This document shows positions 2,967-46,400 of a DNA stretch of 64,000 bases, one piece after another (the stretch's first letter is position 1; the number at the start of each line of letters is the position of its first letter). Under the pieces are notes generated by a model. The model was not told where the DNA came from, searched no databases, and saw only the letters and a program-made list of their open reading frames with translations. The DNA comes from Perkinsus olseni. Taxonomy: Eukaryota. The stretch lies in the NCBI GenBank assembly GCA_013115125.1, contig JABANN010000108.1:1-64000 (forward strand). Direction: 5' to 3'. A program made the position numbers and the translations under genes.

Positions 2967-5900
2967 TCAGCAACGGCTTCCTCTGTACTTGTAGCCGTTA
3001 TCCATCATCTCCACGGTTTGTGAATGCTCCGTCAGCTTGGAATCTGCAACGTCCTTCAAAACACTCTCTCGGACTTCTTCAATCGTCTCTATACCGAGCG
3101 AGTATATATGCGTTTGCAGTGACATGAAGAGCTTAGCAATCTCTCGGCCACTGAAGCCTGAAAGCTTTTCAGCAACATCATAGAGGCAGTCGTCATCAAC
3201 TGTTGCATCAGAGTGTCCCCTGTGTGGCCCTCGGCTCTCCTCGGGGTTGCCCTCCTCAACATGTGGTCGACTGCGTCGTCTCACGCTCGCTGTCTTCCGT
3301 GCCCCTGCTGCTGCCGATCCGCCCCTCTTCACAACTGTTACAGAAGCTGGCTTGAGGAGAGGACTCGAAGGGCGGCTGACGTGGAGTTTCGACAACCTTG
3401 GCCTCTTCATCGGAGTCACGACGTACTTCTCGTAATACATACGACACAACATGTGACGCTCGATGGTATCAGGCAGCCCAAATTCGACGCTCTCATCAAT
3501 CCTATCGAGGACTGCAGCGTCGAGGTCCCCCGGGCGATTGGTAGCAAGGACGAGCATGAACTGCGACGAAGGTGTTCCTGTATGGTACAGCATGGTCGTC
3601 AAAGCGTTACGCATATGTTCCCCCATGCCAGCAGTCCGAGCGCCTGAAGAATCAACACTGCAAAGTCAAAACTTCAGAGCTTCCCACCCAGGAAAGCATC
3701 AGCCTCGTCAATGAAGAGGAGAACTCCCCGACGACTCTTCTTGACCCAATCGAAGAGGTTATGCAGTTCCGTGACGGCCATCTCGTTAAGCGGCGCGACA
3801 TCAGCGCCGCACATTATAGCATATTCCAGCCCCGAATACCTGCCAGGAAGAACATTCCTAAAGGGGTCGGTTAAACCTCCTCTTACTCAGCGAATCTCTC
3901 GGCTGTCATCGTCTTGCCAGTGCCGGGTGGGCCGTAGAACATGCAATGCAGCAACGGTTGCCCCCGCTGCTTTGCTGTACCTGCCAGGGGCCGTTGAACC
4001 ACACCCACTGGAGCTCATCTACGGGTCGCATCGGCGAGGCGCTTGATGGTGAACAGGTGATCGGGGCGGAGGACGACGTCCGAGAACACCCTTGAAGGAG
4101 CCCCTCGGTTGAAGATCCAATCTCGGACGTCCTGACGTCCAAAGTTATTTCCATCCCCAGGGTCAGGGAAGCATACATGAGCCAGAGACTTCCGACTAGT
4201 TCTCCTGAGAAGGCTTGGCTTCCCCAAACGCTTATTGAGCTGATCTCTGGCCAGCATCGCCATCTCACGCGTAAAGTAGATGGAAGCAGCACAACCTGAA
4301 CAAGGACGAGCGAGCCATCAGGGAGTGTGGTCTCTACCTGTAACTCACCCGCGAGGAAGCCGATGGTCCGGAGCACTTGGGTGGGCGAGGAGAAGAACCA
4401 CGATATCGACTCTCGAGCTTGATGCACAGATTCTCGTATATTCTGATGTCATAAACACTTAGAGGGTATTAAGCTGCTCACGATGGTTACCAACCTGTAA
4501 GGTGGTCTCCCTGTCTTCCCGAGCCCTGATCTCCATGGCCTCTAGATCATGCTTCGCTTTGGCCTCCATCTCCCGAAGGTTCACATCCTCATTCTCTCGC
4601 CTGTCCCTCAATCGGGCCTCCTCCCGAACTCTCGTTAACTCTATTTCCTTCTGAGCTTCTGCCTGACACGATCGTCATCATCACCGACCCTTCGACTCAC
4701 GCAGCGTGGACTAGAGGCCTCCCTCACGGCCTTACCTCGGCCTTCGCTCTCTCGGCGTCCACTGTCCGATTTAGTCGTTCCATTTCGAGATCGTGGCTTG
4801 CCTTCTGCTGCCTGTGCATGCAGTTCGAGGACGACGGAGCGACTCCCACCGACCCTCTTACCTCAGCTGACTTTCCTCCTGCATCTCCACCATCTTAGCA
4901 TCATGGGCTTCACGTCGATCCGATTCGGCCGCCACACGCCGTCTATGGAGGCTGAAAAGCGACATGCCGGAATCGAACCCGGGTCGTCTGTATGGCAGCT
5001 ACTCATCCTGATGCTCGTCAGCTTTCTTTTGAAGCTCTTGCTGTCGTTCCATGTTACTTCGTTCCATCTCCAGCCGCATCTTCTCGAGGCGTATCTTCGC
5101 CATGGTCGCCTCCAACTCGAGCTCCGCCTGAGGGGACCACCTCTCACCACCACCCGCCGAACTAAGACTGATCTTAGGCCATTCCCGGCATCATACTCAT
5201 ACCCGATACGATCCAAATCTGGTGGATTGGATGACCTCACATGTTTGGTGATCTGCAGGAGATCTTCACTGGCCTGTTTCTCCATAGCCTTCCACAACTC
5301 CGTCACATTACTCTCGAGAGACGCCAATCTTCGCCTGTCATCCTCGATCTCCGAGGAGAGCTCAGCCGATCGACGCTGGTAGAGTTCGCCATACTCTTCC
5401 AGGGAAGAACTGATGGGGAAGATCTTCTATGCAGAGTGGTTGTCTTGCTAGGCTTACTTGACACGACTTAGCCTCTCTTGCAATTCCTCAACGTTGCGGC
5501 TTACTCCTTCCCCTCGTTCAACCGCTTCCTGTCTATAATCCTCCACCAGAAAGGACAATGAGTAATGCAACGAACGCAGGGCCCTCATGGAGTCCTTGAG
5601 GTCATCTAAGCCGAGACCCAATACCACTCCTTTCTCAAATCATCCCTCTCGTTACCTAGCGATCGTTTGCTCCTCTCTGACTCCGTCTCTAGTTTCCTAT
5701 TCAACCCTTCTCTTTCCCGTACCATCGCTTCCTCGCTCTTAACCATCGCCTTCATGAGAACCCTGATCAGCACTTGCCGTCAGCCGAATAAATCACTTCA
5801 CAGACCCTCTCGAAAAGTCGTGCTCAATGACATATTCAAAGAACGATAGTATGAACTCTTTTTCATAAGTAACATCAGAGTAACATCGGAGATGCTATAA

Positions 5901-25654: not shown

Positions 25655-26189
25655 CAATAGTAGTGACATGCTCACTGTTATGTATCCTATTATCATTCCA
25701 CCAGCAGCAGCAGTATTCGCAAACACAATTCTCGTATTGATAATTTCGGTAACAGATGGTATCGTCTGTTCTGGGCTGCTACCTTTCAGCCTCCTACCGA
25801 TCATCATCATCGCTGGACCAGCGATTCCCCTTCACTGCTGCTGCCGCTACTACTGCTGTATCATGCATCTCCCTGATACTGTCCTAGAGTAAAAGAAAAT
25901 TAGTATATTTTCTCAGCGGAGCGAAGCAGCAACTGCCGCTGTTCACAATTGATATTTTACGAGTAGTGCGGTGTATGGGGAAGCACATCAACCGAAGCGT
26001 TGCGTTCAGTCGGAAGTTGAAGAATGCAGCCTCCGGGGATCGAACCTCCGGCTTTCTATCGTCATCAGCGCTCGCCATTTCGATCGATTTCTCTGAACAC
26101 ATCGCCCTGACCTGCCCCACGAGAATGGTAGTGTAACCAACGTGGTGTGTAGGAGTATCTCTTGTTGTCGTTTTCCCTTCCCGTCATTG

Positions 26190-28223: not shown

Positions 28224-29143
28224 GCAGCGACAGGGGCGACCGCTTTATCAAGTCTCCGCTGATGTATTGTTATTTTGTGTTCATCAACAGTTTGATGCCC
28301 CAATGGGGATGGAAGTGAGCCAGTCCGCACATCAAAACGAAAAAAATAGACGACCTTCGAAATACACGATTTTGTGTTACGATAAATGTCACGTTCGCAT
28401 AATTTCCTGAATTGTAAACAGCAGGATGTCATAGCAGATGAGCCCTCCCTTCCATTACTGAACAAAACAAGTTATCGATGGTGAAATAAGTGCTCGTTCG
28501 ATTCTCATCTCGTAAATCATCTATACCAATGTATCTTTGCTGTTACTTCGTCGTCATTGGTAAACACATAATGGCGATTATTATCATTCTCATCCAGTAT
28601 AACAACACGCCGCCGCCGCAACCACATCACCGTCGTAGTAATCACCAATACTATCACTACTAGTGATGATGTAACTAATTAGACTAAGTAGTCGAGTAGC
28701 CAGTCGAGTACAGTGTTAGTTTTAGCAGAGAGGAGTACTTGTGGTAGTAGTGGTAGTAAGGAGGAAGTGGTAGTAATCATAACCACCAATACTCATACAA
28801 TGTTTCATCGTTCTTCTTGTTAAATGCTAGGAATATGACAGAATAAAAGGATGATGACGAGGCTAATCAAAAAATGAGCTACTCAACTACCCCGGCGTAG
28901 CATCATCACTGGCGAATTGGCACAAAAACGCTGCTAAACAGTGCACAGTGAGTGGCACTAGAAATAATAATAAGAAGTACCCAATAGGCTACATGATTGA
29001 TACAAGCCCATCGGTCAACAACAGTCTACGAAAATAATAGGCATAGTGATAGTGGTGGTGGTGGTGGTGCTGGAGATGGGATACGCCAAGCATCCAGAAG
29101 TACCGATAATAGACGATCGGACTCGGCAGAAATGATGCCCTTA

Positions 29144-30625
29144 CTATTGCTGGGCACAATCAGGATCGGTGGTGACACGGGGCTCTTCAGTGAAGGTAGC
29201 ATCACCACCATCCCAAGGCTGGTAAGTATCTTCCTTATCGACGACGTCATTATCGACGATATCCTTGGCGTAGAGGTAATAGCACCCTCCACTGGTGTAT
29301 GCGGCTCTAGCCAAACCCTCACGTTTCTGCTCATCAACGGTAGTACGGAGGCAGTCGAGATTGAGCTCATCAGTGTAATGACTATTACTGCCGCCAAGCA
29401 GTGACTCAAAGCCATTGCTCTTGCCGACCGCCGGGGACGGGAAGATGGTGGGACTGCTACCAACACTTGTTGGTATCGAATTACTCGAGGAACCCGACCG
29501 CTGTATAATTTCTGATGAGCCGCCTCCGTCGGGTCGCCCTCCAATTAAGCGACGAGAGGCGGCGTAGTAAGGATAGGTATCATCAGTATTGCCGTTGTTG
29601 TTGTGGTTGAAGTTATGCCCTAGGAGAGCAGCACCATTACCACCAGAAGCATCGACCGTAATGAAGGACCTTCGCGGAACCTGTTCGTAGTGCTTCACGC
29701 GAGCACTCGAGCCCAGGTGGCGAAGTAGACCACCAGCCGCGGGGTTACCCTGCAGAGCCGAGTTACTGGCGTTAACGGCGGCAACTGCCGACGAAGAATG
29801 CTCAAAACTACAGAAACCAAAACAGCGGCTCTTGCCAGTACTGCGGCACCTCTTGACCTCACAGTCGATAACTGCGCCAAATTGCCGCGACATGAGGGCT
29901 TTCAAATCTGCGGTGTTGATGGCAGGCGACAACCCACCCACGAACACAGTGTTCTCCGGGGGAGGGTTCACGTAGTTATTGATATTATTGACCATGTGGA
30001 TGGGGGAGTCGCCAGGCACCTCCACCCTGCCACCGCCACCATCAGCAGCACTGCCATCAGTGACGACTGTGCTGCAGTGGCTGGAGGCTCTAAAACGACC
30101 ATCAGTGATGTGACCATCGGGTTGACCTTCACCAGGGGAATCGTCAAAACTGAAGTGCTTCACTTGAGTAGTCGCCCAAGTGACGCAGCTAGTTTTACTC
30201 GATCTGGTGGTGTTCCTCGGCCACTGGTAACCGTTGAAGATGGTCATAAACCTATCAGCCACCGGCCTCGATGTGAGGTTGATGAAGGCGTAACCGCGAT
30301 TGCACTTGTTGTAGTCGTCCCAAGGCAGATAGACACTATGGTACTCTCGGTCGTTGCCGTACTCGAACCCATGTTCGTTCATGACTTGGACCAGCATCTC
30401 ATAGGTGTAACGATTGGGTATGTTGCGCCACATGACCGAGGTTAGCTCATCAGGAGGGCACCCAGGGGGCATGGACTTTTCTATCTGCTTTCGCAGGAGG
30501 GAGGCCTCTTCTTTGACGTGGTGGAGTGGAGGGGGAGGGGGAGGAGGAGGAGGAGAGGAAGGGAGTTCCAACAGACCATCGGGAGACATTGTATTAATGG
30601 TAGTAGATCGAACTGAGTTCACCAC
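29144..30625 (-). CDS. Mei2-like RNA-binding protein (Mei2-type RRM followed by a canonical RRM)
   Basis: 'TSVMWRNIPNRYT..VYLPWDDYNKCNRGYAFIN' (Mei2 RRM3 signature), then 'TVFVGGL..KSRCFGFCSF'. Continuous 493-aa ORF. Confidence 0.85.
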   Translation of the reverse strand: MVNSVRSTTINTMSPDGLLELPSSPPPPPPPPPLHHVKEEASLLRKQIEKSMPPGCPPDELTSVMWRNIPNRYTYEMLVQVMNEHGFEYGNDREYHSVYLPWDDYNKCNRGYAFINLTSRPVADRFMTIFNGYQWPRNTTRSSKTSCVTWATTQVKHFSFDDSPGEGQPDGHITDGRFRASSHCSTVVTDGSAADGGGGRVEVPGDSPIHMVNNINNYVNPPPENTVFVGGLSPAINTADLKALMSRQFGAVIDCEVKRCRSTGKSRCFGFCSFEHSSSAVAAVNASNSALQGNPAAGGLLRHLGSSARVKHYEQVPRRSFITVDASGGNGAALLGHNFNHNNNGNTDDTYPYYAASRRLIGGRPDGGGSSEIIQRSGSSSNSIPTSVGSSPTIFPSPAVGKSNGFESLLGGSNSHYTDELNLDCLRTTVDEQKREGLARAAYTSGGCYYLYAKDIVDNDVVDKEDTYQPWDGGDATFTEEPRVTTDPDCAQQ

Positions 30626-30827
30626 GCTGAATCACCGCCCAAAGATTCCTTCGGGACGATAAGAATGCGCTGGGGCGAGCGATATCAAGGTATATCATAA
30701 AAATGCCGCATGTGGGTATCGAACCCGGGCCCTTCTCCGCCACACCTCGAACTGACAACGCAACGTCGGTGTGGGTAATTGAAACGTACCAAGTGGTATA
30801 AGGTGGCATCTTAGGTTGATGACGGTG

Positions 30828-32437
30828 TCATTCATGACAACGCATCCTCTTATTCTTATTAATAAGCAACTGTGGTGAAGGTGGCGTCACCCCGGCCTGC
30901 TGCTGTTGTTGTTGCCGTAGTAGTATGCCCAAGATGGGCTCCCCATTATTGCCGTCAGCATAACGATGCCTTTTTTGTATCCTGCCAGCATCAACAAAAG
31001 ATCCTCGCTCTCGGCAGTGGCTGACGAGATCCCCCCAGACCTTCGATGATCGTCCGAGGCTCTCAGCGTTACCGACTATCCACAAGGAGTACTTGGCTCG
31101 AGTCAAGGACACGTTCAAGCGTCGGTAGTCGGCAACAAAACCGATACCGCCATCACGACTACTCCTCACGCAGGACATGATGATGATATCTTTCTCCTGA
31201 CCTTGATAGGCGTCCACGGTGTCCACCTCCGCTCCGCTAGATACTATTCTTTTTATCAGAGAGGCTTGCTGACGGTAAGGCGTAACAACACCGATCGACA
31301 TGTTTCTGGTGGCCATAGCCTCCACCATCTTGCCCACTAGACCAGCCTCCTCAGTGTTCACCAGCGACGTCCCCCCTCGGCCCCGCTCCTCAGCCCCCAG
31401 TCGAGAGTCAAGGAACAGCAGTGGCCGCAGAGGCTGCCCCAAGGAGGGCGGAAAGCGGCAGCTGTCAGCGGTCCTCAGGCGGCCATCGTAGAACTCTCTC
31501 GAGGCGAAGTCAGCAATCTCCGGGAGCATACGGTATTGTTCGTCGAGCAAGTGGGCCTGCCAGCCGGCGTCCACAAGACGTTCGAATAGAGACCTTTCAT
31601 ACCGCAAGGCCTTGGCCTCCATCGACACCACCGTAGCCGGCAGCTGCTGAGGGTCGCCGACCAACACCAGACGCTTAACTCCACGGAGCTTTAGTGGTAT
31701 CAAAGCTGATGGCTCGATAGCCTGGCACGCCTCGTCGATGATACAAGTAGCGTCACGCGCCACGAAATTAGTAGTGATAGTGTTGCTGCCAAACGAGCTG
31801 AGCGTGCCCAGCACCACCCTAGCCCTGCCTAGGAGCTGCTTGCAGGCCTCGTCACGCGACCGGGAGAGGGCCCGCGAGGAGCGCTGCTTCAACTTATCCA
31901 ACTGTTCCTTCAACTCCTTCTTCTGGGCTATCAGTCTGCCCCGATCAGCCCTCACTTCGGGGTCGTTATCGCCAGCTAGCTCCTTGATGGTCTCGTCCAA
32001 CTTTCGCACCTCCGCCAGAATGCCCTCCCTCTGTCCCCTATGCTGCCCCCTCAGCTCCGACTCCTTCTCTCGGCCGCCCGTCTTGGCCAACTCCTCCAGC
32101 GATATCGCCTTCACCTCTTCCCGAGTAATCCTTCTGTAGGACCCAACGCGGAGGACGCTATGGACCCCCGGCGGCTCCTCACCAGGCGGCAGTAACGTCC
32201 CCAGAATCCTCGACGTCAACTCATCAACAGCAGCATTCGACGGCGCACAGATCACCAACTTGCTCGTCGTCTCCAACAGCGTCTTCACCATCGCCACAAT
32301 AGTTTTGGTCTTGCCCGTCCCCGGTGGTCCCTGCACCAGGGTGATGGGTGATGACACATCAGCAGCGCTGGCCACAGCCCTAGCCTGGGCTTGGTTCAAG
32401 TCGGTTGAAGCGCCCACACCAGCATTGGAAGCATTGC

Positions 32438-32512
<75 letters not shown>

Positions 32513-35500
32513 GGCGCCTCAGCACAGGGACTGATGGCGTGATGAGGAGGTCTCGTAGCGGCGATAGGGTGCTGTTGGACAGGACCCAGTCCAGGGCCTC
32601 GCACTCTCGTTCGGAGGTGGTAGTACTGCCGAGGACGACGGCTTGGCAGAAGGACCCGACAGACCAAGGCGATTGGGGGGATAGACCGTAGGGTGCCTGA
32701 TGACCACAAAAGCTGCCACAATCTTGCTAATTCTCGAAGTGTTATACGCATTAGCGCGCGCCCTGCACCAACCTCGTCCGATTGGAATGGTATCTTAATC
32801 CTCGCACTGCGGAACTTGCCGACCTCCTCCTCCCCCGGTTGTTGACTGGCTGCATCCTCCTTGAATACCACTCCAAACGCAACTGTAATGTCCACTAGGC
32901 CGCCGACGGTCGTCAAGGGAGACCCCGCCAGCAGTGCGTCGTAGAGCGGTGGTGATGAGCCGTCGTCTCGCGGATGGATGAGCAGCACCTGCGATGTGTC
33001 ACCACTACTCCAGCATCGCTCCCAATAAGGCGTACCAAATCGCCCTGACTGAGAGTTTCCACCCTCCGCTCGGATCTACTACTACTTTCACGACGATCGT
33101 CGCCGGGCTGGTCTAGCTGGGACTTCACTGTCAACCTGTTGGAGCCTCCTGGGGTGGATGCTGGGGGGCACTCGACACTCGCCTACGTGGCCCACTTCCC
33201 CTTACGACTCGACCTGCTGATCTTGACAGCGGGTATGCCCCAGTACAGACTGCTGCCCTCGGTGCTCGACAGGGAGCGACGAAGAGCTTCTGCTGACTCA
33301 TACAACAACGCTGGACGGAACCATTTAACGTAACTGGACATTATAACAGCCTTTCATCCCAAAGGTCCCCGATTTGATCCCTCCTACTCGTCGGCCGATG
33401 TGAAGCTTTCGTTTCCCCTATCGCCCCTCTGCATCCCCATTCGACCCAGCATAGCGGACGTATCCTGTCGGGTCGAGAATGGATCTCGACACAGGAGTAT
33501 CTTATGCAAGTCGTCGACCGCGTGCTCCCTCTCAACCCTAAAGATACGTCGTCATCCAGGCCCTACACGCACGCCCCCTACTCGATAGCGTTGCCATTCT
33601 TCCGTTCATGCTGCTGCGCCGCCGAGCCGCGAGTCAACTTGATTTTAGTTCTCTCCATCTTCATCCTCCTGGGTTTGCTCCGACTCTCGAACATCGGCGG
33701 CGGCTTCCCTGTTGCCTCAGCCTTGGCCACTGCAGCCGCGCCCGTCGGGATCGCAAAGCCGCTGGTCGCCCTCTTCGGACTAGGCGCCAACTTAGCTACT
33801 GGTCGAGGCTTCCGTGGAGGGGGCGGCGGAGGAGCAGTGACTTTATGCTTCGCTCCGTCGACCGGGGCAGTTTTTTTCGCCGCCACTTGATCCCACATAT
33901 TAGCGAACGCTCTCTCCACTTTAGAGTTCCGAGAAGTCGAATGCCATGCTGACGACGACGTGGCCGCAGCCTTGGCCGACGCCGCGGGCTTCAGGAAACC
34001 GTCTAGTTTGGACTGGACTAGTTTACCGGTACCTTCCCCTCGATTGTTGGTGAAGGAGCGGTATGACGGAGCTGCACGCATCCGGTCGAGAGCTCCGGCG
34101 ATGGACTTCAACGCCCCGTTGCTGCTATCAGTAGACCTGCTCGCCGGCTTCGCCTCCTGAGCAACACCCATCATCGCTCACCCAAAGCGCCGGCCCACCT
34201 ACCTCGGCCGCGGGAGGAGGAGGTGCCTCGGCTGCAGGCTTCTCCTCCTCCTCATCGCTACTACTGCTGCTTGATACCGATAGTACCCCTACCGACCGAC
34301 TAGGGGTGTAAGCGTCCCAGTCGTCCGGTGATGATGGTAAGGAAGCTGAGAACCAACAGCAACAGAAGATGCACAGTCGGGCAGAGGAACAGAGGCTGTC
34401 GCCCCTTCACGAGCGTATCACAAGAAGTCCCCACGACTCAGCAGAGTTGAACAACTCCACTTTCCAATGAAGAACGCTGCCACCAACACTATGATTTACC
34501 CTTCCGACTGGCCTGTCCGAGGATGAGATTAACAAGATGCCCCTTTCTACTACGTAAGGAAGCTGTTGGGTCCTCATCACTCGGGTGTACGAACGAGGGA
34601 GGCTGCGGCGCAGACTTCTTCGGTTTGGGTTTGGGTGCCGCTGCCGGCGGAGGGGGCCGGTCGCCGTGGATCCGCTTCTCAAGAGCGGACAAAGCCGCAG
34701 TCATCGCGGTGAATCCAGCAGCCGTCTGGAAGATCACTGTCACGCGCCACGAAATTCCCCTTCAGTCATACCTGGGCATTGGTAGCTGGGGCTGCCGCTG
34801 TTCCCTGAGCAGACCAGTCCCCTGGAACGTTCTCGAATACCCAATCCGAGAGGGCGGTGTGAAGGGCAGCGACATCGAAGAGGTTGTACGACAGAGACGC
34901 CTTCGGGGACTCAGTCAACTGAGGAACCACACTGCTGTAGCGGGCAGAGGGAGGGAGGGGCCCTACCGTATCGACCAGGGCCTTGACAAAGCGGAGGGGG
35001 CCGGGAAGGGAGGCTGAGGGGCCGCCAGAAGTGCCACGACGCTCCAACACCTCCACGGCCAGCGTACCGATGGATCGGAGGAAGACCTGAAGACGATGCT
35101 GTTGATGGTCGGGGACTAGGAGCTCATCATCATCATCATGATCATGATCACCTTGAGCACAGGGATGGAGGCCATGAACTGCAGGGCGGCGGGGAGGGCA
35201 CAGCTGGAGAGGAGGTCCCAGGCGTAGTCGGACACCTAGGAGGAGGAGGAACCATACCACCCACTCCAGCGTGTAGGGGCCCTACGTTCTCCACACCCAC
35301 CGCTAGCATCTGTTGTTGGCACCACAACGCTAGGCCATCCACAGCCCTGGGGTCCGATGACAGTACCTGCCATCCGTACCATCGTCTTTTATCGAACCCC
35401 AGCCAATACTACCTCCCTCAGGCCAGCCAACTTGTCCGTGTTCTCCTCCACCGCCCTACTCGATTCCCTCCTCAACCTCCTGTCGACGATCTCAGTGAGT

Positions 35501-36763
35501 CCAGGGATGGTGGCCAGAGAGAAGCTGGTGTCCTTGAGAACTGTCAAGCCCTCATTCCTCAACTTCTCGACGGCCGTCCTCGCCCCTTCCTCCAAGACCG
35601 CCGTGTTGTGAGCCGACGTGGCTGCCGCTGACGTGATGGCCAAGACGCAGGGCTCTCCCCGGGCTGCCATCGCCGTCCAGAGGGCGCGGGGGAACCACCA
35701 GCCCTCGGACGACGAGGAGCAGCAGGCGGCTGCCGATGCCTCCAGAAGGGCCTCCGCTATTTGACGGCCCCGTGAGGACTCCTCGACCTTGGCCAGCAAA
35801 GGCTCCTCCCACCTCACCCACGGGCTGTCGGGGAAAGATATCCAATTGTCAGGATTGGTGACACGTATCCGACGGAGCGAAGCACAGACAGTTTCCACCA
35901 CCCAGTCATCATTTTCGTATTTTTCCATCAGTTTTGCGTGCACGGCTCGAGAAGAAAAGTGCAAGGACTCCAGGAACTCGCTCGGCGCCTGCTGCGCCTC
36001 CACTTCTTTGACATCAAGCTTGGACGGTATGCCTCCCCAGTACTGGAGCAACGCGATGGCCCGACTGACGGGAGGGCAGCCCCAGGCGAGGCAGGCACGA
36101 AGCCTCTCGTCATGATAGGGGTAATACACCGACTCCAGAGCTTCGTCTACTGTATCTTTCTCGAAGTTGGCCAGGAGGAACCTGAAATCCCATACCACAT
36201 TTCCGCCAACTCCTCCTCGGACCCCCCTGTATGCTACTACTCAGTCATCTCACATGATGCTTTAACAAAGGCCTCCACACAGTCAGGACATAGAGTGACT
36301 TTCAGATGGCGATCGATGAGCTCCATTACTCTCCGGAACGGCCTCTGACCAACCAAAGACGCTCCTACGGGTAGTCGGTAGGGCGGTAGTCGCTCGATGA
36401 GGGCGCATCACCTCCAACTGGCTGGACGGGTCCATCTCCACCAACAACAGCCGCAGGAAAATCGACAAGGCGCTGGTCAGGTCCGAGGCTTTAAATCGGG
36501 CCCGGCACAGCTGCAAGGGTATCTTTACTCCCCGTGATTAACCAGAGTGAGCCTACCCAATGGCCGCCGTAGTCCACTGATTCCCTACAGGCCGCCTCGA
36601 GCGTATTGAGAGCAGCCACGGCTCCATCTGAGGTTATTCGGAGTTCCTCCATCTCCTCCTCCTACTCCGACGAGAACAAGCGTACGACCAAACAAGCTTG
36701 AGTGGCGACTGTGCGATGACGATGATGATGAACGCAACCACGCGGAGGAGTGTTGGAGGACAT
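30828..36763 (-). CDS. SEN1: Sen1/senataxin-like UPF1-family SF1 helicase
   Basis: '[13 protein letters not shown]', 'ICAPSNAAVDE', 'IIDEACQAIEPSALIPL', 'VGDPQQLPATV', 'SLFERL', 'QYRM', 'TVDAYQGQEKDII', 'RRLNVSLTRAK'. Long multi-exon N-terminal region; start uncertain. Confidence 0.85.
32439..32510. repeat. (GTT)24 microsatellite encoding poly-Asn in the helicase
   Basis: 72 nt of perfect trinucleotide repeat immediately before the helicase core. Confidence 0.95.
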
Positions 36764-36809
36764 CTTCTACATGACTACACCAACGTGATGGTAGCGGATA
36801 ATAAGAGGC

Positions 36810-38007
36810 TTAGTAGCCGAAAGTGGTGTACACAAAACTGCCAAAGCCGATGGAATCTAAGGTCGAAGCACGCAGTCGGCAGAATAGTGGCGACGACGTG
36901 ATGATACTCACCTTCTGAAACTCCTCGGCCTGGCAGAGAAGCTGTCTTGGGCCGAGGCCGACCGAAGCCACATCTAAATGGAATGGAGAATTGCATCGAC
37001 CAGGGATCGAACCCGGGACCTACTTCCGTGCATTCTGTCCGATGCGACCGTGCTCTGCATACGCTCCAGGACCCGGGCCAGTGTCGTCGCCTCGCCTGTG
37101 AGATACAGTCGAAGCATACCCGCTTTGAAAGGCCTCACCGAAGGCGAGAACGGTAAGAGGTTCCGAAGGTCCATCGAGGGCCGCTCCCTTGAGGGGAAGG
37201 ACCGGTCAATCGGTAGTGGCCAGGGCCAGGCATTGACGCCGCGTCCGACGCTGAAAAAATACTCCACAGAGACTCGAACCAGGGACGTCTCTAGACTAAC
37301 ACGACGTCTTAACCACTAGACGATGTGGATGCACATAGTCCTGGCCCGATACTACTCTCCCCGGCAGGCCCATGCCTGGACTTCATGCTGAACATCTTCC
37401 CTGTCTTCCCCAAGGAGGACGGTGGATTGTAATGCCCCGGCCCCGGCTCGGAATACCTCCGCGTCGCTCCGCCACAGCTCGACCTGACCATGGCCATAAA
37501 CAGCCGCCACAGCTAGACACCCACCTTCCACTTCCAAAGCCGACTTTGGCACTACTGCCCACCTCCCGGGGATTGTACGACCCCGGCCCTGGACCATCAT
37601 CAGACCGTGTCCGGGTATCCTGGCGGGAATATTCGACCGGAAGTTGCTCCCCCTCCTCCCCTTACCCCATCTCGCCTGCCTGTACCGAAGCGGAAGGAGG
37701 CCCCTCTGCCCAGGTCATTGAGCCGTGTTGTTCTATACTGCCCTACAACGCAGGCACAGATGATTAATAAGAGCCCTCATCGACCTACCTGGGCCGGGGA
37801 TCATGTTCCCTCTAGAGACCGACTCGCCGCTCCTCCGACCACCGATGGTCCACTTGGGGGAGGTACGGATCTACGGAGGGGTGTCAGGTGAGGGGGCCGG
37901 GCCAATGCTGCTACCTGGGACATTCTGGTCAGCTGTGTGACCTGCCCGAGCCCCGACTGTCGGAGGGAGGGAGAGGCGCTGTTCGGCCGGTCGGCGTACA
38001 TTGACAT
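36810..38007 (-). CDS. SHIPPO/ODF3-like PGP-repeat (flagellar) protein
   Basis: Repeated 'PGPGSYNP', 'PGPGHYNP', 'PGPGHYRL' and 'PGPGAY' across exons. Confidence 0.75.
37262..37329 (-). pseudogene. tRNA-like element filling an intron (acceptor stem, D arm, A and B boxes; anticodon and T stems broken)
   Basis: TCCACATCGTCTAGTGGTTAAGAC...CCTGGTTCGAGTCTCTGTGGAG followed by T6. Confidence 0.55.
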
Positions 38008-38142
38008 GAAACAGTAAGGCTTACAAGAACTAGAAAGAATAGAACCCGGGTCGTCAGATAGCGCGACCACAACTCTAACCGTTGTACCATTCCAACTCAA
38101 CCCTACTCCACTAAAGTCTCCTGAAACAAAAAGTATTGCAAC

Positions 38143-38875
38143 TCATTCTCCTTTCTCCTTCAACTGCTGCTTCACGGCCTCCAACGCCTACAAACATTCC
38201 CATCAGCATCAGCAGCCCTCCCCCAAGCACCCGAACCTGTTGGCCGTTCTTCAGCGTGTTGAACGCCTCATCGGGCAATTTAACGTCGAAAGCCTCTTCG
38301 ATCTGCAGCAAGCATTCCACCTCCTCCAACTCATCAAAGCCGAGGGACTCAAAACTGAGCGTCAACTAACAGCGAGGGCATCATCATCATCATCATCACG
38401 CAGGACAACACCACAACCTACCAACTCTTCCGGAGTTTTCGACCCGAACGTGGCGATATTTTCATCCAACTTTTTCAGGGCCTCTTCGGCAACGCCTTTG
38501 GCCGCCTCTCCTCCCTTCTCAGCCTGCTGCTCCACAGCAACCTACACAGACCAGGAATGTGCGCTCAATTTAACAATAATCGATCATTCGGGCGAGCGCG
38601 TTATGCCCTCTACTACCTCCTCTCGCCTCATTTGTAGATACCCCTTGATGGCCGCTGCTGTCCGCGTAGCTAATTCCGCAGGATTTTGCCTAACGTTCAC
38701 CATCAGCGTTCCGTAACTCACCCGCTTCAACCTAAGATTCCCCTCACCCTTCCGATGAAAATAGCGCACGCCCCGGAGTTGATCCAATGCGCCATGATGA
38801 CATCCTTCCGGCCATTCCACCGAGGACCGATGCAGCGGCGCGTGAAATAACAAGTTGGCTTCGGACGGGGAGCAT
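38143..38875 (-). CDS. Mitochondrial acyl carrier protein-like, lacking the phosphopantetheine serine
   Basis: Arg/Ser-rich presequence 'MLPVRSQLVISRAAAS..RALFSS'. 'SFESLGFDELEEVECLLQIEEAFDVKLPDEAFNTLK' aligns with ACP 'DLGLDSLDxVExxxxxEEEFxxxIPD'. Confidence 0.75.
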
Positions 38876-39058
38876 GGAGAGAAGCGGAAAGGCAACTGTC
38901 AGCGTAAACGGCACCAGAGTGACTAAGAATAAACACAACAAGGGCTATCCTAACGATGATAATGATTACTAGTACCACACTTCGGGTTCTACGCGACTAC
39001 GGAGGGAACAATGTACAGAATTATTACTTCGACTAAATTACGACAGACGGGTGGCCGC

Positions 39059-40167
39059 TCAATAATCCCATCCTTCCTCTCGAGCGTACATATCGACCAT
39101 CGGAGGCTCGCTATTCCAATCGATCTGTCTAGAGTAGGTGTTATCAATAGCATCATCAGCGCTGCTGTGCTCCTCCACCTGCCCCTCGTCCCTGGCCACA
39201 TCCCGACAGTTGTTATACCAAGAAAAGTACAACTTCCGATCAACTGTACTCTTCCCGTCCGCCCTTAAGCTCATCTCCAACTCCTGCAACTTCTCGAAGA
39301 ATCCACAGTTGGGCCGGATGTTGCGACAGTGCCTCACATGCGTGAGGGCGTGGTACAAGGACTGGCCTCTCCGCTTGACCAGATACGAAAGCAAGGTGGA
39401 CGCAGACCGGGACACTCCGCTGCGGCAATGAATCAAAACACAACCCGAGGAGGAGGCAAGCGAGGAGGGGGAAGAAGACGGTGACGTATCTAAGGTCGAA
39501 CCCTGCACTGGACAGAAAACACCGCTTGCCCGCCTCCTACCCTGCTCCATGTAAGGCCGCAATGTCTTGTCAATGTGCTCATGCGCCTCGTCCCAAAACC
39601 AATCTATGGGCTCACAGGACATATCTTCGACATCAACCCTGACAGGACAACAACCAATACCACCAGAACGAACTGCTTCGTTCCGACGGCGGTACGGACT
39701 CCGAGCGTGACGATGATAGATTCGCCTCAGCCCGACCTACCGGTAATAATCAACCCCATCTGCTGTGAAGAAGATATCTTCCGGATACTCGGTTATGGTA
39801 CAACAACAAACAACACTTGTAATATTATACTTACGAAGCAGCTCTCTGTTACGCGCCACAATGTGACCACCCAAAAAGATACGCGGGAAAATCTGATACA
39901 AAAACTGACAAAACGCACCCCAACCACCAGCACTGCCCACCTCATGAGCCGTCTCTTGAGGGTCCAATGGCGGCCGAATGCGCAGCCGAGCCAACGAATC
40001 TGCCATCCACCACTGCCACTCAAATCACGTCAACAATGCCCATCACTACGTCGCTCAGCCCTCCGCCGTTTCCGCCTGTTGCCGCTCTCCTTCAGATCAG
40101 CCCTCGGGGTATCCAACTCCGTCGTGTGGACCATCGACGATGAGGCAACTTCCATCGTGGCCAACAT
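39059..40167 (-). CDS. Dual-specificity protein phosphatase
   Basis: 'QIFPRIFLGG..LLRKYNITSVVCC', active site 'VLIHCRSGVSRSAS', 'IRPNCGFFEKLQELE'. Confidence 0.9.
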
Positions 40168-40273
40168 CTGAGGGGAGCGAGTCGTGAATCATGAAAGGGC
40201 AGTTGCCGTTGATCAATGAACAGTTTACATCATCCCCATCACTCGGGACGTGGATAAATAATCACCAGTAGGT

Positions 40274-41629
40274 TTATCTGAGCAACTTGTGAGTCACCGC
40301 CTTCGACCTCCTCTCCACAAGATACTTCCCGCGACCCTCCCCCCTGTGGCCCCCTATTACGTTGCTGCGTCGAAGGCGATGGTCCTCAGCACTGGACGAT
40401 TCCGCCGAGGATGTCGACATGTCAGGCGAGGGGCTACTGCTGCTGATGTTTGCCGAGTCCAAACCGCCATCATCGTCGTCACTTTCTTCGAGTAAATTAA
40501 GCCGCTCCAAGATGGTGCGATGGGAATATATCCGACCTGATACATAGAACCCCGGATCGATCCCGGCACCCGGCACTTTTCCCAACCACCAAAGTCACTA
40601 CCCTTTTCCTTCTTTTTCCTATGCTGATTCATCGTACTCATCTGCAGCCTCGCCAACGCATCAATTCCCGACGGCTGAGAACACAACCAACTAGCCACCA
40701 CCTCCTGACGGAATAGCAAGAGCGCAAGATACTACCTGTGAGGCCCCTAGCTGAGCTACACCTCCGACCACCGTTTGCATTGCGTCTGGCGGAAGGTTAA
40801 CTGACAGAACGACGAGTCTTCGTCCCATGAAGCCTCGTCCCCTCACCTTCATCTTCGGCATCACTGCCGTCCTCGTCGCTCTCTTCGACCAAATTAAACC
40901 TTTCCAGTATCGATCGGCCCCGCATGAGGGCTCCTATGATGGACCATACGATCACATAACCCCTGCACAGCACTACCCCTCCTTCCCGCTGCCGCTTGTT
41001 GACGCATCAGAGTGGCCTCCAACGGCGCCATGTAGTCTAACGAGCTCGGTTGGGGCTGCAAACAGAACAAAAGATTCCCTCGAGGCCAACCACCTCCAAC
41101 TCACCTGGGTCGGGGAGCTCTCAGCTGACGCATCGCCAATGAATGGCTTAAATGCGACCAATGGGACCGCGGGGGCCACCGTGGATGGTGGGATGGACGA
41201 CGACGAGGAGGACAGACCTGACGAAAGTTTCTCTGGTGGTCGGATGGCATAGGGACGCTCACCGTCCACCATCATCTGGTAGGGGGAGTCCCCCGAGGCC
41301 AGCGCTACCGGAGGCTCGCTGTGGATGCTCTGAAGAGGAGCGTCGTAGTAGAACGGAGCGGTTAGGCGTACCTCATTCTCCGATGGTAAGATACAACCCT
41401 TGGCTGGAGTGGTTACAGAGGTGGTCGCAGGTTCGATCCCCGGCGTCGGCATCATCTCAGCAGCTAGCACTTCTGCTGGACAGGAGGAGAGCATAACCCC
41501 ACTGCCACTGCGGCTCCTCCTTTTGCCCCTCCCTCGGCCGGCGAAGTATTCATCCGCAGTCTGTGCCACTCGATTGGGGGAGGTGTCATCGACCGCAACT
41601 TCGCCATGGCAGGAATCAACAGATTCCAT
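40274..41629 (-). CDS. Hypothetical low-complexity protein with a duplicated motif
   Basis: Exons join in phase (e.g. GAA G|gtgagg..cag|TT AAC). The motif R[ST]ILER[LF]NL[LV]EESD occurs twice. Confidence 0.5.
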
Positions 41630-42746
41630 TCGACTGAAGAGAACAACAGAGACGATGGTGGTGACACGCCCCGGGCCCGAACTGACTGAGGGACTACAGC
41701 AAGCTGGAGATTATGAGAACGATCCGAGGCAGTCTAATGAGGTCCTCTCCACCACTGATGGCCACTGTGATGGTTGGTAAGATGACATCAGATGATGCAA
41801 TACAGGAGTACTCAATCTACCTCAAAAAATAGAAAGAAATCCGATTTACGAAATATAGTTTACATTTACCAATCATCGTACTAACCACTTCCGCTGCTGC
41901 CATTCCGCAGCCGTAACGCTCAACGCCGGCATAGATTTCACGACAGGCGGAGGGATGGGGCACTAGAGGTTTCACTCCGGGTGTTGTTGAAGACACACGC
42001 AGATGGTTATCTACGGTGGTGATCTCTAATACCCACCACCCTCCATAAAGATTATAATGGCGATTCTGCTGATACCCAATAAAGATGCTCACAATGGACG
42101 ATAAATTGATACGTGGCCCTTCATCAATCAGGTTTAGTGAAGCGATGCGTCAGTAATAGATGATGGTAGCCCTGACGACGAATGATGATCACAATCGGAT
42201 CATCATTGTGAAGATCCGATCGTCATGATAGTCAGGACCTATATAATGATGATCTTGGAGCATTGATAACGACGAATGATAGCACGTCATGTGCGGTCAT
42301 CGTGCGCCATCGGATCTGTATAGATCCGATAATACACGACAAATTTAAAGTCATCCGCTAAAAAATATTTCCGGCAATTTTTTTGTAAATATAATCACGA
42401 GTATTTCCCACGGCGTCGTCGAGTTGACGATGACACCACCCACCTCCAAGCCTGCCCTCTCCCTTCGCTAGTCCGGAGTGTTTGATACCGTAAATCCCCC
42501 TCATCGTAGGATGATAGCAGATGGTGATTATCAAACTCCCCCACAGCAGCGGCTCCCCCTTCGGCCACGTCACGGTCGATCTCTGCACCACGAGACAGCG
42601 GAAGGTTGCGATGGTAGTAATAACTGCTGCCATTACTCTACAATTTAACCAACACAACAGCAAGACGGTGATGGCAAGTGGTAGTAGCAACTCTAGAAGC
42701 TGTTATGATGATGATGACGGTGGTGGTCGAGTCCGCGGACGGTCAT

Positions 42747-42975
42747 TTACTTCTGGTTAGAGTTGGGACCCCTCTTAGGGCCACCAGTCACCTTGGCGGA
42801 GAAGCGACGGTTGTACTGCATACGCTTGCGAGCGCGACCTGACAGCGATGGTGATACAATTAACGGATGTTATGGTATTACCAGTGATGGCCTTCTTCTT
42901 CTCCTGCTTGGGGACCTTGGGGGTCTGATTCTTAACCTTACCGGCACGAGCTAACGATCCGTGAACTTTTCCCAT
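42747..42975 (-). CDS. RPS30: 40S ribosomal protein S30 (eS30), one intron
   Basis: [44 protein letters not shown]...GPNSNQK*. Confidence 0.97.
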
Positions 42976-43402
42976 GGGGTAACAACAAAGGAGCCAGCAA
43001 CTACCTAGGGTCAACCTAAGATACCATCCCTCGACCAAATCCTGTACGTGGATCCACGCCATCACGCTTCGACGGTTCGATAATATTCAACAGCGACAAC
43101 TCATAGCCTTACTAGATCACTACTGATGGGACTCAAAAACGCATCACGGACGAGTGGACCACCACCCGACCGGTAGAAGGACCTTTCCGCCGCCGGAGCA
43201 CCTCGCTAAGGATAAATCGATCACAATGGCGAGCGAGATTTACGCCAACTCCGACATGATTAGCAGCCGACCATGCGGTGGAGCCATGAAGACGAAGCGA
43301 CGCAAAACTAGCGGGTTGGGGCAGTGGGAAAGGAATTTGCGGGGCTACGTGTTTGGATCGTAACCTATTGCGTATCTTCCCATAGTCGACCTTGGATATT
43401 CT

Positions 43403-46400
43403 ATGATTCGTCGGTCATCATTATTCCTTCTTGTGTTGCTGCTCGGCTTGCTCTTCTGTGCCGATGCTGAGGAAGAGGAGTACTCATACCGTCGACGTAA
43501 CCGTAGTATCTTTCAACCTCATCATTGCCGCGCTTAACCTAAAGATACTTTCAGGCGGTAAACGAGCTCGGCGCATGGAGCTTATGCGTCACAGCTTCGT
43601 CAGCCCACTTACATACTCCAACACTCTTGGTAATACCTATTCTGTGAAATGCCAGCATGATGAAAAGATACGTCAGGTGATTGGTTCATGAATGGCGCCA
43701 CAGTAGCCACCGATGATCATGTTATTCTTACCCCGAGCATAGCCCAAAGATACGGCATATTTATGCATACCATGCCGATCGATACCAATGATTTTGAAAT
43801 CCTTTTTGATGTCTCGGTAAGAGGGCATCTTAGGTTGACCCGTGCAAGATACACAATAGGTTGGATTGGAGGCATAATCCACATCTCAGGTATCCGATGG
43901 TCCTTCGGGTAGTCGTGACTCTGGCTTTGCTTTGTGGTAATAAGTCATCACGGAGGGTCTCTCTGATGGCATATGAGTATCTTAGGTTCACCACGATGAA
44001 TTACACAGCCGAGTTCTCGAAGGTGCGGGATGAGCTGCAGAAGGGGGATAATAAGAAGGACTGGAAGAATGCTTTCAAGGCTCTCGATTATTCATTACTC
44101 GGACAAAAGGTAGGTTGAACCTAGGAAGATACGAATGGGGTTCGAGTGAGGTATCTTGTCGGCAACAAGCGTCGGCGAATCTTCATCTCTCATAGTCCCC
44201 TCGCTTCAACATAAGATACGTTGTCGTTTCTCAGTCCCGTTTCGATGGTTTTGGCGTCGTCTTCACCCCCAAAGGGGCATCCGGAGATGAACACACTGGT
44301 AGGTGATGATGATCGAAGCGTCTTGGTATGTTGTTACTTGACCGAGTTGAGCTCCGGTGTTGGACTTAGTACTCACGCACTATTCCTGTCTCGTCAATTA
44401 CTCGGCCAGTAGTGTCTCAAACGAATGGATCATTTTCCTGTATATGGAATTCATAGTGAAGGCCAGCGGTGGCTGGCAGTACTAGCCGTTCTCACCCTAG
44501 CGTATGTAGCCCTTTTTGTCTGTATTGAGCACGATCGGACAGCGGTGGACTACTCCACGGTCCATCACGAACCATCCCTCCTAAAGATGCTGTCGCCTTG
44601 ATTCGCTTTTTTTGCGCAATGAATACTAAACGGCGATCTGTGACGGGTTTTCGGGGAAGCATCGGACGTGCTGTTGTGGTTGGGAGGAAAAATGACCCGA
44701 AATGGCTATTTTACGTTCCTGTTTTTAGTAATCCGGATGTCGATAGATTGAAACTCGGTGTTGTGGTATGCTGATGGTTGGTGGTCATCTCTTCAGTTTC
44801 GATCATCACCAATCGGAATGATAGGGCCTTGTCATTCGATATGGACGTGCCTGATAGAGAGTCTTCAGCGAGGGTCAACTTGCACGGCATGGGTGTTCCT
44901 TTTCGGGTAGTATCTTGGCTCGATGCATGCAAGATTCAAAACTGGTCACCTTTAGATTGGTATTCGTGTTCGTCCTGATCTCATTATGGTCCGATATCGT
45001 GATGCGAATAGACGTTGGCAGGAGCTCACCGCCAAGAGGGGTGTCACCGTGCCGTAAGATTACTATCGCCATAGATAGTCCATACCACTCCTCCCCCAAA
45101 TCATACCCAGGTCCAGCGGCTACATCGGGTTCACATCGTGGAGCGGCGACTCTCTGCCTACCGAGAAGGTGTCCGTCGTCGACATGCACGTGTAAGTCAT
45201 TCGACAGTCCCCTCCACTCAGCAGCCCTGACCTCGTCGGGATAAGATTCCCTTCATCGTTAATGCGTAAAATATCGGTCATGGAGATGGTCATGCGCAAG
45301 CTCGAGCGGGCAGCGTCAGGAATGTCTTTGCCATATGAAAATTATACATTTTTAATTTCATTTGAATAGTTCAGTAAATTATCTATGGCAGAATATTTTA
45401 TTTTTGATCATCTTTTATCGCTGTATTCCTCGTTGTTATCTGTGATACTATCACATTATCTCAGCTACAACATGGACATGAGGCGGCCTGGGGAGACTCT
45501 GATGCAGGAAGTCGTCGACGAGCTCTCCGATGGTGGGAAGATTGATTGGAAAGAAGTATCGCCGGGACCAGGGGGTGTATGCTCAGCTCCATCGCATTTG
45601 GTACCTTGCCTTACTGGTAGTATTATAGCAAGGCCCGAGGGCGGTCGAGTGAATGGTCCTAGACTTGTGTATCATTTATTGCACTCTGGTCGATTGGTCT
45701 CACTTTTGTCGGTGTGGTTGGACCCTTCATGTCTCTACTAAGATGGAGACTGGAAATGCGATATGAAGCTCCGTTAATTCTGAGCTCAGAATAAAAAATA
45801 AACTTAACCTCAGTGGAACTAACAACGTGACAGAATCATCATCTGTTATGTTCTTGTATCCTTATTGTAGCGTTTACTCTATTCAGTTGCTGACGTCTGA
45901 TATCGGGGAGGACACCTTTCAGCAGACACTAACCCTCCAGAAGATCACGGATATGCTGGTCAACTACATTCAAACCACCCAACCGGAGATGGCCAAGATG
46001 CACTCCCAACTGGGTAGGGAGGGAGCTTCGTAGCAGACTATGTCTAGCCTACGTCAGTGGCCGCCACTGGACAGATTTTCCCGCGCGCCAGGAAATTATG
46101 GAATTTTTTGACGGCGGCGTTGTTGTTCAGGTAAGATAACTCATCATATCGTGGATTTGGAGTCTCGAATGAAGCAATTGAGGAAGGAGATCAAAGCAAC
46201 CAGTGAAGGTATCTTTACGCACAGCGAGGGTTTTTTCCTCCGTTTAGATGGGAATCTTTCAGGTTCGGGTGGATTATCAACTCTGAAGAACCAAATGGTG
46301 GGCTTGAGAGAAATGCTGACGAGGGAGTCGGGCGATCATAAGGTGAGTTTTGTCAGCCGTCTGTGAAAAAAGCGCGCGCCCGAAAAAGAAATTTGCCGAG

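Follow-up and report, generated by a model that had tools for sequence, protein, structure and literature searches.

Intron 5 of a repeat-protein gene in Perkinsus olseni, a protist parasite of shellfish, appears, from its sequence, to hold a decayed copy of a tRNA gene. The host gene lies on the minus strand of the 64,000 nucleotides (nt) that we analyzed (positions 1 to 64,000 of contig JABANN010000108.1, GenBank assembly GCA_013115125.1); this whole stretch is called the window below, and all coordinates are its own. The window is eukaryotic, with a GC content of around 0.44-0.60, one tRNA-Gly(GCC) gene and many short GT-AG introns confirmed by RNA. An initial annotation had described at this site an 84-nt intron consisting almost entirely of a tRNA-shaped sequence, and the letters that it quoted are indeed present. 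We consider the tRNA origin of the segment to be real, but read it as a degenerate DNA copy of a gene and not as a tRNA-shaped RNA. With moderate confidence, we propose that intron 5 acquired a copy of a tRNA gene, which decayed there and is now spliced out with the intron as a neutral relic.

Anatomy of the relic

The relic runs in the sense orientation of its host gene and makes up about two thirds of the most likely, 105-nt, intron (Table 1). Its A and B boxes stand in tRNA order and at tRNA spacing between complementary acceptor strands, which form a stem of 6 bp (6/7 pairs), and the D arm is complete; all four of these elements, named in the initial annotation, were therefore located. The anticodon arm, described there as scrambled, is degenerate, with about 3/5 stem pairs, and the damage extends to the T stem, which is broken by the loss of two bases after the T loop (a 2-nt gap in the Rfam alignment). 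The distance from the D arm to the T loop is one base under the standard. Because the anticodon and T stems have been lost, the segment is not a tRNA, and with two of the four stems broken, the suggestion that the intron encodes a tRNA-like RNA finds no support in structure. CCA is absent from the 3′ end of the relic, whereas an oligo-T run is present immediately downstream; because the terminator is there and CCA is not, the segment is a copy of the gene, a pseudogene at the DNA level, and not of a mature tRNA.

The T6 run had initially been taken to double as the polypyrimidine tract of the intron. Among 20 introns shorter than 130 nt (12 confirmed by RNA and 8 from the host-gene model), it exceeds every other T run, the remaining 19 introns having runs of at most 4, and the pyrimidine content ahead of the acceptor varies from 0.27 to 0.80 across these introns, their tracts being weak. 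Since local introns need no such tract, the run is better read as, probably, the old terminator of RNA polymerase III (Pol III), which now stands just 5′ of the CAG. We also considered TTCGA as a branch point, a candidate that inspection of the other introns by eye did not support.

Table 1. Positions in the window of the host gene, the relic, related tRNA-like pieces and two repeated motifs.
Feature	Position	Strand	Details	Basis
Host gene	36810..38007	minus	PGPGxY-repeat (SHIPPO/STPG, PF07004) protein, 255 amino acids, nine exons	Reading-frame model, repeat pattern, protein FOZ63_016452
Host-gene exons 1-9	38007-37915, 37870-37789, 37742-37666, 37619-37525, 37483-37356, 37250-37139, 37095-37024, 36973-36912, 36856-36810	minus		
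Intron 5, most likely borders	37251..37355	minus	105 nt, GTAGTATC...TTTTTTCAG	Donor position weight matrix, FOZ63_016452 junction
Initially annotated 84-nt segment	37251..37334	minus	Alternative in-frame donor GTGCATCC at 37334, adding 7 residues (SSIGPGL)	Letters confirmed
Putative tRNA gene relic	37261..37330	minus	Sense to host gene	Rfam alignment, composite motif test, tRNA-Gly alignment
Acceptor 5′ strand	37329-37324	minus	TCCACA; pairs with 3′ strand TGTGGA, 37268-37263	
D arm	37321-37306	minus	Stem GTCT/AGAC, 4/4 pairs; loop AGTGGTTA	
A box	37323-37313	minus	9/11 matches	
Degenerate anticodon region	about 37304-37286	minus		
B box	37280-37270	minus	GGTTCGAGTC at 37280-37271; 10/11 matches to consensus	
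T6 run	37259-37254	minus	Two bases past relic 3′ end	Seen directly
CAG acceptor	37253-37251	minus		
Intron 7	36974..37023	minus	50 nt, opens GTAGGTC; tRNA 3′ half	Frame change, FOZ63_016452 (NARK joined to CGFGRP)
Intron 7 T arm	37016-37000	minus	CCGGG-TTCGATC-CCTGG, 5/5 stem pairs	
Intron 7 acceptor 3′ strand	36999-36993	minus	TCGATGC; discriminator A at 36992	
GCATCGG in exon 7	37039..37045	minus	7/7 complement (one G-U) of intron 7 acceptor 3′ strand	Rfam alignment stem
Candidate intron of coiled-coil gene	4952..5002	minus	51 nt; T-arm-like piece, TTTT and CAG at 3′ end	Frame logic by eye, B-box match
T-loop/acceptor-like relic	30701..30729	minus	Followed by T5; between helicase and RRM genes	Related ninth piece
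Further B-box matches	9048, 11768			
ATCTWAGGTYGA places	15614, 17889, 20560, 30808, 36855, 38727, 39488, 43011, 43827, 52697, 53030, 60843			
ATACCA motif	9439-9459(-), 17649-17669, 21916-21936, 45082-45102, 52139-52159(-)		Weaker at 5620, 21488, 23343, 36185, 42478	

Resemblance to tRNA genes compared with chance

Models of whole tRNAs recognize the relic poorly. When a 106-nt slice was searched, the Rfam tRNA model (RF00005) aligned over its full length (model positions 1-71) with a score of 12.6 bits (E = 3.4), the gathering score being 29, and it gave no match at E ≤ 10 when 701 nt or the whole window was searched. ARAGORN at its default settings reported the tRNA-Gly gene only and missed the relic, and it reported 37260-37331 only at -ps80, a setting at which the window yielded 36 matches against a mean of 39.35 over 20 shuffles. 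Folding at minimum energy does not produce a cloverleaf, and the z-scores are -1.07 (74 nt) and -1.69 (105 nt). A score below gathering and a missing four-stem cloverleaf are not what a functional tRNA would present, and the term "tRNA-shaped" of the initial annotation is not supported by these results.

The evidence for a tRNA origin comes instead from the order of the parts. We devised a composite test that called for an A box with at most 2 mismatches, a B box with at most 1, tRNA spacing between them, acceptor strands complementary at 6 of 7 positions and a T run immediately downstream. The full composite occurs at one place in the window, the relic itself. Among 300 dinucleotide-shuffled windows, 34 contained the A and B boxes and 2 the acceptor complement as well, and none had all of these together with the T run. 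A looser composite, set before the exact geometry was known, found at least one match in 33 of 1000 shuffles. In addition, a semi-global alignment of the relic with the tRNA-Gly gene of the window gave a z-score of 4.87, which none of 300 shuffles equaled; this similarity lies mostly in universally conserved parts, and the match does not name the parent. The isotype Thr(agt) proposed by ARAGORN under relaxed settings was within noise, and no isotype was assigned. The 5′ TCC start may be Glu/Asp-like and likewise led to no assignment.

The host gene and the borders of intron 5

The short intron that holds the relic belongs to a gene for a flagellar protein, whose introns 1-8 measure 44, 46, 46, 41, 105, 43, 50 and 55 nt. 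A translated search with exon 5 recovered the P. olseni "hypothetical protein FOZ63_016452" (285 amino acids, PF07004) at 93% identity. When this protein was searched against the window with tblastn, its matches tracked the exons of the host gene, and introns 1-7 agree with it. Our reading-frame model is the only source of intron 8 and of the stop at 36810, the database protein having been translated through intron 8; the two models conflict here, and one of them is wrong. Left unspliced, 36857-36911 (minus strand) gives the database protein a hydrophobic tail, and when it is removed as intron 8, the C terminus is short and includes an additional xGFG repeat motif.

FOZ63_016452 is the one ortholog model that we have. 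In a search with this protein at E ≤ 1e-5, no other protein exceeded 36% identity among the 120 of 147 matches listed. Three metagenome loci (L001-L003; 39-43% identity) were considered as orthologs and rejected as generic SHIPPO-repeat genes, which have no bearing on the presence or absence of the intron. A search for transcript-derived peptides over the junction showed that no protein of 26-86 amino acids shares words with exon 5 and that, among longer proteins, FOZ63_016452 alone does so. The depth of RNA contigs over 36839-37505 was 22.4, 1.07 and 0 in the sets labeled X7, X8 and X19, respectively, figures that describe contig depth and are uninformative on splicing.

The initial annotation had allowed for the case that the segment is exonic. 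This is not so, because stops are present in all three frames of the 84-nt segment, the flanking exons 5 and 6 share one frame in which the PGPGxY repeat carries on across the intron, and FOZ63_016452 runs from ...SRHGPAGE straight into TSDAASMPGPGHY... (GPAGE joined to TSDAAS), skipping the segment. With GT-AG ends, an untranslatable interior, flanking exons in phase and an ortholog protein that passes over it, 37251-37355, at a phase-1 position, has the features of a spliceosomal intron. In the P. olseni gene model an intron ends at the same acceptor, so that the intron is at least that old. It is about twice as long as the local norm, at 105 nt against 41-55 nt for its seven sister introns and a median of 50 nt over 23 introns.

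The 5′ border that had been proposed initially is probably incorrect. We built a position weight matrix from 15 RNA-confirmed donors, which themselves score 5.2-12.6 bits. The donor GTGCATCC at 37334, which would yield the 84-nt intron, scores -3.8 bits and is equaled or beaten by 75% of the GT sites in the window; GTAGTATC at 37355 scores +5.8 bits, inside the confirmed range and among the top 4.8% of GT sites, and the same 8-mer opens the RNA-confirmed intron 44907-44955. The spacer of repeat unit 3 would be 31 residues long with the donor at 37355, the same as that of unit 4, and the donor at 37334 would add 7 more. Because the donor at 37355 scores better and fits the FOZ63_016452 junction exactly, the 105-nt borders are the most likely ones on sequence grounds. 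Both 84 and 105 are multiples of 3, so that either donor keeps the frame; it is possible that the two are used alternatively, giving or withholding 7 residues, or that 37335-37355 is a former exon end.

Intron 7 and scattered tRNA gene fragments

The initial annotation also called intron 7 of the same gene tRNA-like. That intron 7 is a real intron follows from the shift of frame across it and from FOZ63_016452, which joins ...NARK to CGFGRP.... The likeness holds for a T arm, an acceptor 3′ strand and a discriminator A (Table 1), but not at the level of the whole molecule, since Rfam returned no tRNA match there and only an antisense look-alike, Plastid-ycf2, at 26.1 bits against a gathering score of 65.7. 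The heptamer GCATCGG in exon 7 could pair with the acceptor strand of intron 7 and, on paper, would form an acceptor/T-arm minihelix across the 5′ splice site (p about 0.01-0.05, a rough estimate). Because GCATCGG encodes a regular part of the protein repeat, this pairing is probably due to chance.

Similar pieces recur in the window. The B-box pattern GGTTCGANYC has 9 matches at 8 places, of which one is palindromic, whereas 100 shuffles gave 1.00 on average and 5 at most, an excess of about nine-fold; the exact 10-mer GGTTCGATCC alone occurs 5 times. These B-box or T-arm places lie at 4970, 9048, 11768, 14226, 26037, 37004, 37271 and 41430, with a related piece at 30701, and after several of them comes an acceptor-like 7-mer with GCA, or a T run. 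Three of them lie, by frame logic, in introns in the sense orientation, namely introns 5 and 7 of the host gene and the candidate intron 4952-5002. The related piece 30701-30729 is 79% identical over 29 nt to 4955-4983; RNA contigs X7 and X8 end at 30614 and resume at 30805 and 30789, respectively, a weak hint that the piece is intergenic. The piece at 26037-26046 precedes a spliced-leader acceptor at 26151, and those at 14226 and 41430 lie antisense in candidate open reading frames (ORFs) of 124 and 245 amino acids. Pfam searches with 135 of the 204 ORFs of at least 90 amino acids (those up to 45.7 kb) gave no match at the other B-box places, and the strands there were separated neither by a log-ratio of codon usage, for which three Pfam-supported ORFs served as training set, nor by an enumeration of ORF flanks.

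The excess is carried mainly by the B-box word. Intact T arms number 6 in the window against 2.65 expected, a marginal excess that 21 of 500 shuffles reach and that is weaker than the word count, and the T-arm repeat family has four members with 69-79% identity over 29 nt only. The A-box-like TAGTGGTNA has no B box downstream of it elsewhere (5/6 places). A full B-box match was present in 0/15 RNA-confirmed introns, among which one near match, GGTTCGAGTG, was noted in 44110-44234. Fragments of tRNA genes are thus scattered in the window, introns included, and are not a general property of its introns.

Origin of the relic

How might a tRNA gene have come to lie in intron 5? We suggest that a DNA-level copy, in the sense orientation and with its own oligo-T terminator, would have entered an intron 5 that already existed, would then have lost its anticodon and T stems, and would now leave with the intron; we attribute no role to it. 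Splicing at 37355/37251, entry into an existing intron and neutrality are all inferred here, and the amplified tRNA genes of the genus would be a plausible source pool. No second copy of the intron 5 element is present in the 64-kb window. Several observations weigh against this account. Without the relic and the T6 run, only about 27-29 nt of intron 5 would remain, which is shorter than the shortest intron here (41 nt) and shorter than the shortest reported Perkinsus intron, 39 nt (PMC3101222). Because this remainder is too short, a simple insertion into an older, intact intron would have to have been followed by deletions. Preservation of the A and B boxes exceeds that of the stems, unlike what a purely neutral relic predicts. 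At the 5′ end of the 105-nt intron, 21 nt (37335-37355, minus strand) read in frame with exon 5 as SSIGPGL, and this in-frame GPG, a hallmark of the repeat, hints at past or present coding. Among the best-supported 15 of 89 RNA joints in 25500-45499 (contigs X7, X8, X19 and X1), none falls in the host gene. Finally, the Rfam score is near chance at the scale of the window, given that E = 3.4 over 4227 families and 212 nt corresponds, by our own arithmetic, to about 0.5 matches of the tRNA model per 128 kb.

The short remainder and the in-frame GPG would both be expected if the insertion itself had created the intron, that is, if a tRNA gene fragment with its terminator had landed in a coding exon and a cryptic donor 21 nt upstream (GTAGTA in GAG-AGT-AGT-A) had been spliced to the CAG past the T run, removing the insert and seven codons in frame. 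Both possible borders keep the frame, and intron 7 and the candidate intron 4952-5002 (50 and 51 nt) are of normal size and yet about 60% tRNA-like, which is unlike the outcome of insertion into normal-sized introns; the intron-associated repeat motifs of the window (see below) suggest, moreover, that intron-forming insertions may occur in this lineage. However, the junction is already present in the P. olseni model, the 7 extra residues would lengthen repeat unit 3 to 38 residues compared with 25-32 elsewhere, so that the 21 nt need not have been coding, and neither an evident target-site duplication nor a second copy of the element was found in the window. The deletion bias of a compact genome can also return an invaded intron to normal size. 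We therefore judge the birth of the intron by this route, which the initial annotation had put forward, to be somewhat unlikely. Of its proposed sources, the tRNA gene stands, but the short interspersed element (SINE) does not, as a body, a tail and a second copy in the window are all missing. Wider still is the idea that tRNA gene fragments (T arm, acceptor strand and oligo-T) are recurrent raw material for short Perkinsus introns and maybe also TFIIIC-type landmarks between genes, introns 5, 7 and 4952-5002 having been born from or rebuilt around such pieces and the B box having been kept because it is bound; we regard this as unlikely.

Preservation of the boxes could alternatively mean that the element still works, either by binding TFIIIC (an "extra TFIIIC" site), by driving a Pol III RNA that ends at the T6 run or by enhancing splicing in the manner of nimtRNAs, the tRNA look-alikes of human introns, which promote splicing (PMC7722341). 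The A box (9/11) and the B box (10/11) are canonically spaced with T6 right after them, and the window has about nine times as many B-box motifs as expected. As a weak hint, RNA contigs of at least two runs stop between genes at 26037-26046 and at 30701-30729, the former upstream of the acceptor at 26151. Against such a role, the activity of nimtRNAs needs a cloverleaf (PMC7722341), which in the relic is broken, and the absence of a full B box from all 15 RNA-confirmed introns argues that it is no general intron feature; a working element would thus seem quite unlikely from the sequence. The remaining explanation, an ordinary intron that happens to carry tRNA-like motifs, agrees with the visibility of the relic to ARAGORN only where shuffles match as often, with an Rfam score far under gathering and with unremarkable fold z-scores. 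It does not account for the ordered motifs, stems and T run, a combination seen in 0/300 shuffled windows, nor for a second tRNA-like intron in the same gene and the enrichment of B boxes, and we consider it very improbable.

Comparison with known systems

Decay of a tRNA gene copy within an existing intron, the origin that we favor, has several parallels. Intron-nested tRNA genes and pseudogenes are well known in animals, for example in Caenorhabditis (PMC4999229, PMC3342880), and share with the relic a Pol III-type unit of A and B boxes and oligo-T inside an intron of a gene transcribed by RNA polymerase II. Unlike them, the relic is decayed, fails tRNA models and fills two thirds of an intron of about 105 nt, in a compact protist genome with 50-nt introns. 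The nimtRNAs described by Hoser et al. in 2020 (PMC7722341) likewise consist of tRNA-derived sequence in spliceosomal introns that is not processed as tRNA, but they come from mitochondrial DNA and require a cloverleaf, whereas the relic is of the nuclear type (A and B boxes, T6), has lost two stems and lacks the maintained cloverleaf expected of such an enhancer.

Introners and transposon-derived introns are known from Micromonas, Aureococcus, dinoflagellates and Amoebophrya (PMC11282704, PMC7789003). In these, as here, a short intron consists largely of inserted repetitive DNA, and introner families are found in the related Amoebophrya; the relic differs in that near-identical copies, terminal inverted repeats and target duplications were not found in the window. 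A tRNA-derived SINE would have the same tRNA-like head with A and B boxes, but the relic, judged from a search at the scale of the window, is not one, having no tRNA-unrelated body and no 3′ tail, keeping the acceptor 3′ strand and terminator of a gene copy, and occurring once in the window. In P. marinus, five tRNA gene types are present in more than 500 copies, and tRNA genes are the specific insertion targets of Dada DNA transposons, as reported by Kojima and Jurka in 2013 (PMC3706591). Amplified tRNA genes in the same genus would be a plausible source of copies and fragments, a putative link; no Dada sequence or Dada-type target duplication was seen at this locus, no search aimed at them having been made. 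In the open-access literature, we found no description for Perkinsus of introns or introners derived from tRNA, and among the papers listed none, by title or abstract, dealt with tRNA-derived introners in any organism.

Where new spliceosomal introns come from, and how very short ones obtain their content, is an open question, and relatives of Perkinsus (Amoebophrya and dinoflagellates) are reported to gain introns from mobile elements. The relic in intron 5, the tRNA 3′ half in intron 7 and the nine-fold surplus of B boxes over the 64 kb together suggest that the amplified tRNA genes of this genus may feed sequence into introns. Taken alone, one decayed tRNA copy in an intron is unsurprising and shows introns picking up stray sequence; it would gain weight if tRNA gene fragments had repeatedly given rise to introns in this lineage.

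Other features of the window

Two repeated motifs recur in the window, a number of their copies near intron-like sites. The 12-mer ATCTWAGGTYGA occurs 12 times against 0.02 expected (Table 1). In at least 5 places it lies 9-15 nt past a GT donor-like site, including one in the RNA-confirmed intron 43817-43889, and host-gene intron 8 ends, on its 3′ side, in the reverse complement of the 12-mer. One copy ends 6 nt ahead of the point where the RPS30 transcript appears to start. Within the 12-mer, AG is followed directly by GT, and the sequence is similar to the local acceptor consensus as well as to the spliced-leader end.

The motif ATACCA-N(6-11)-CCMAMATC was found 5 times against 0.00 expected. 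Together with its weaker relatives, it sits 4-20 nt 5′ of the AG in GT-AG candidates, which measure 43-60 nt at 21909, 23343, 45081, 9439 and 36185 and 74-109 nt at the other five places with a candidate. One of the introns that carry it is confirmed by RNA (45054-45110), and the copy at 36185 is reversed within a minus-strand candidate intron. The motif may represent either an introner-like family of intron-associated repeats or a conserved intronic signal; we found no report of it in the literature on Perkinsus introners.

At 26151, RNA contigs from X7 and X19 carry loose ...CTTGGCTCA just upstream, matching the published end of the Perkinsus spliced leader, and this position is the trans-splice acceptor of an EF-Tu-family GTPase gene (Pfam). 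Two genes for the U3 small nucleolar RNA (ACEA_U3) lie 10.8 kb apart at 2212-2402 and 13060-13250, both on the minus strand, with scores of 117.7 and 113.7 bits and 98% identity over 203 nt. A 62-nt tandem repeat of at least 3 copies, 92-96% identical to one another, occupies 16151-16483 and flanks a 99-N assembly gap at 16306.

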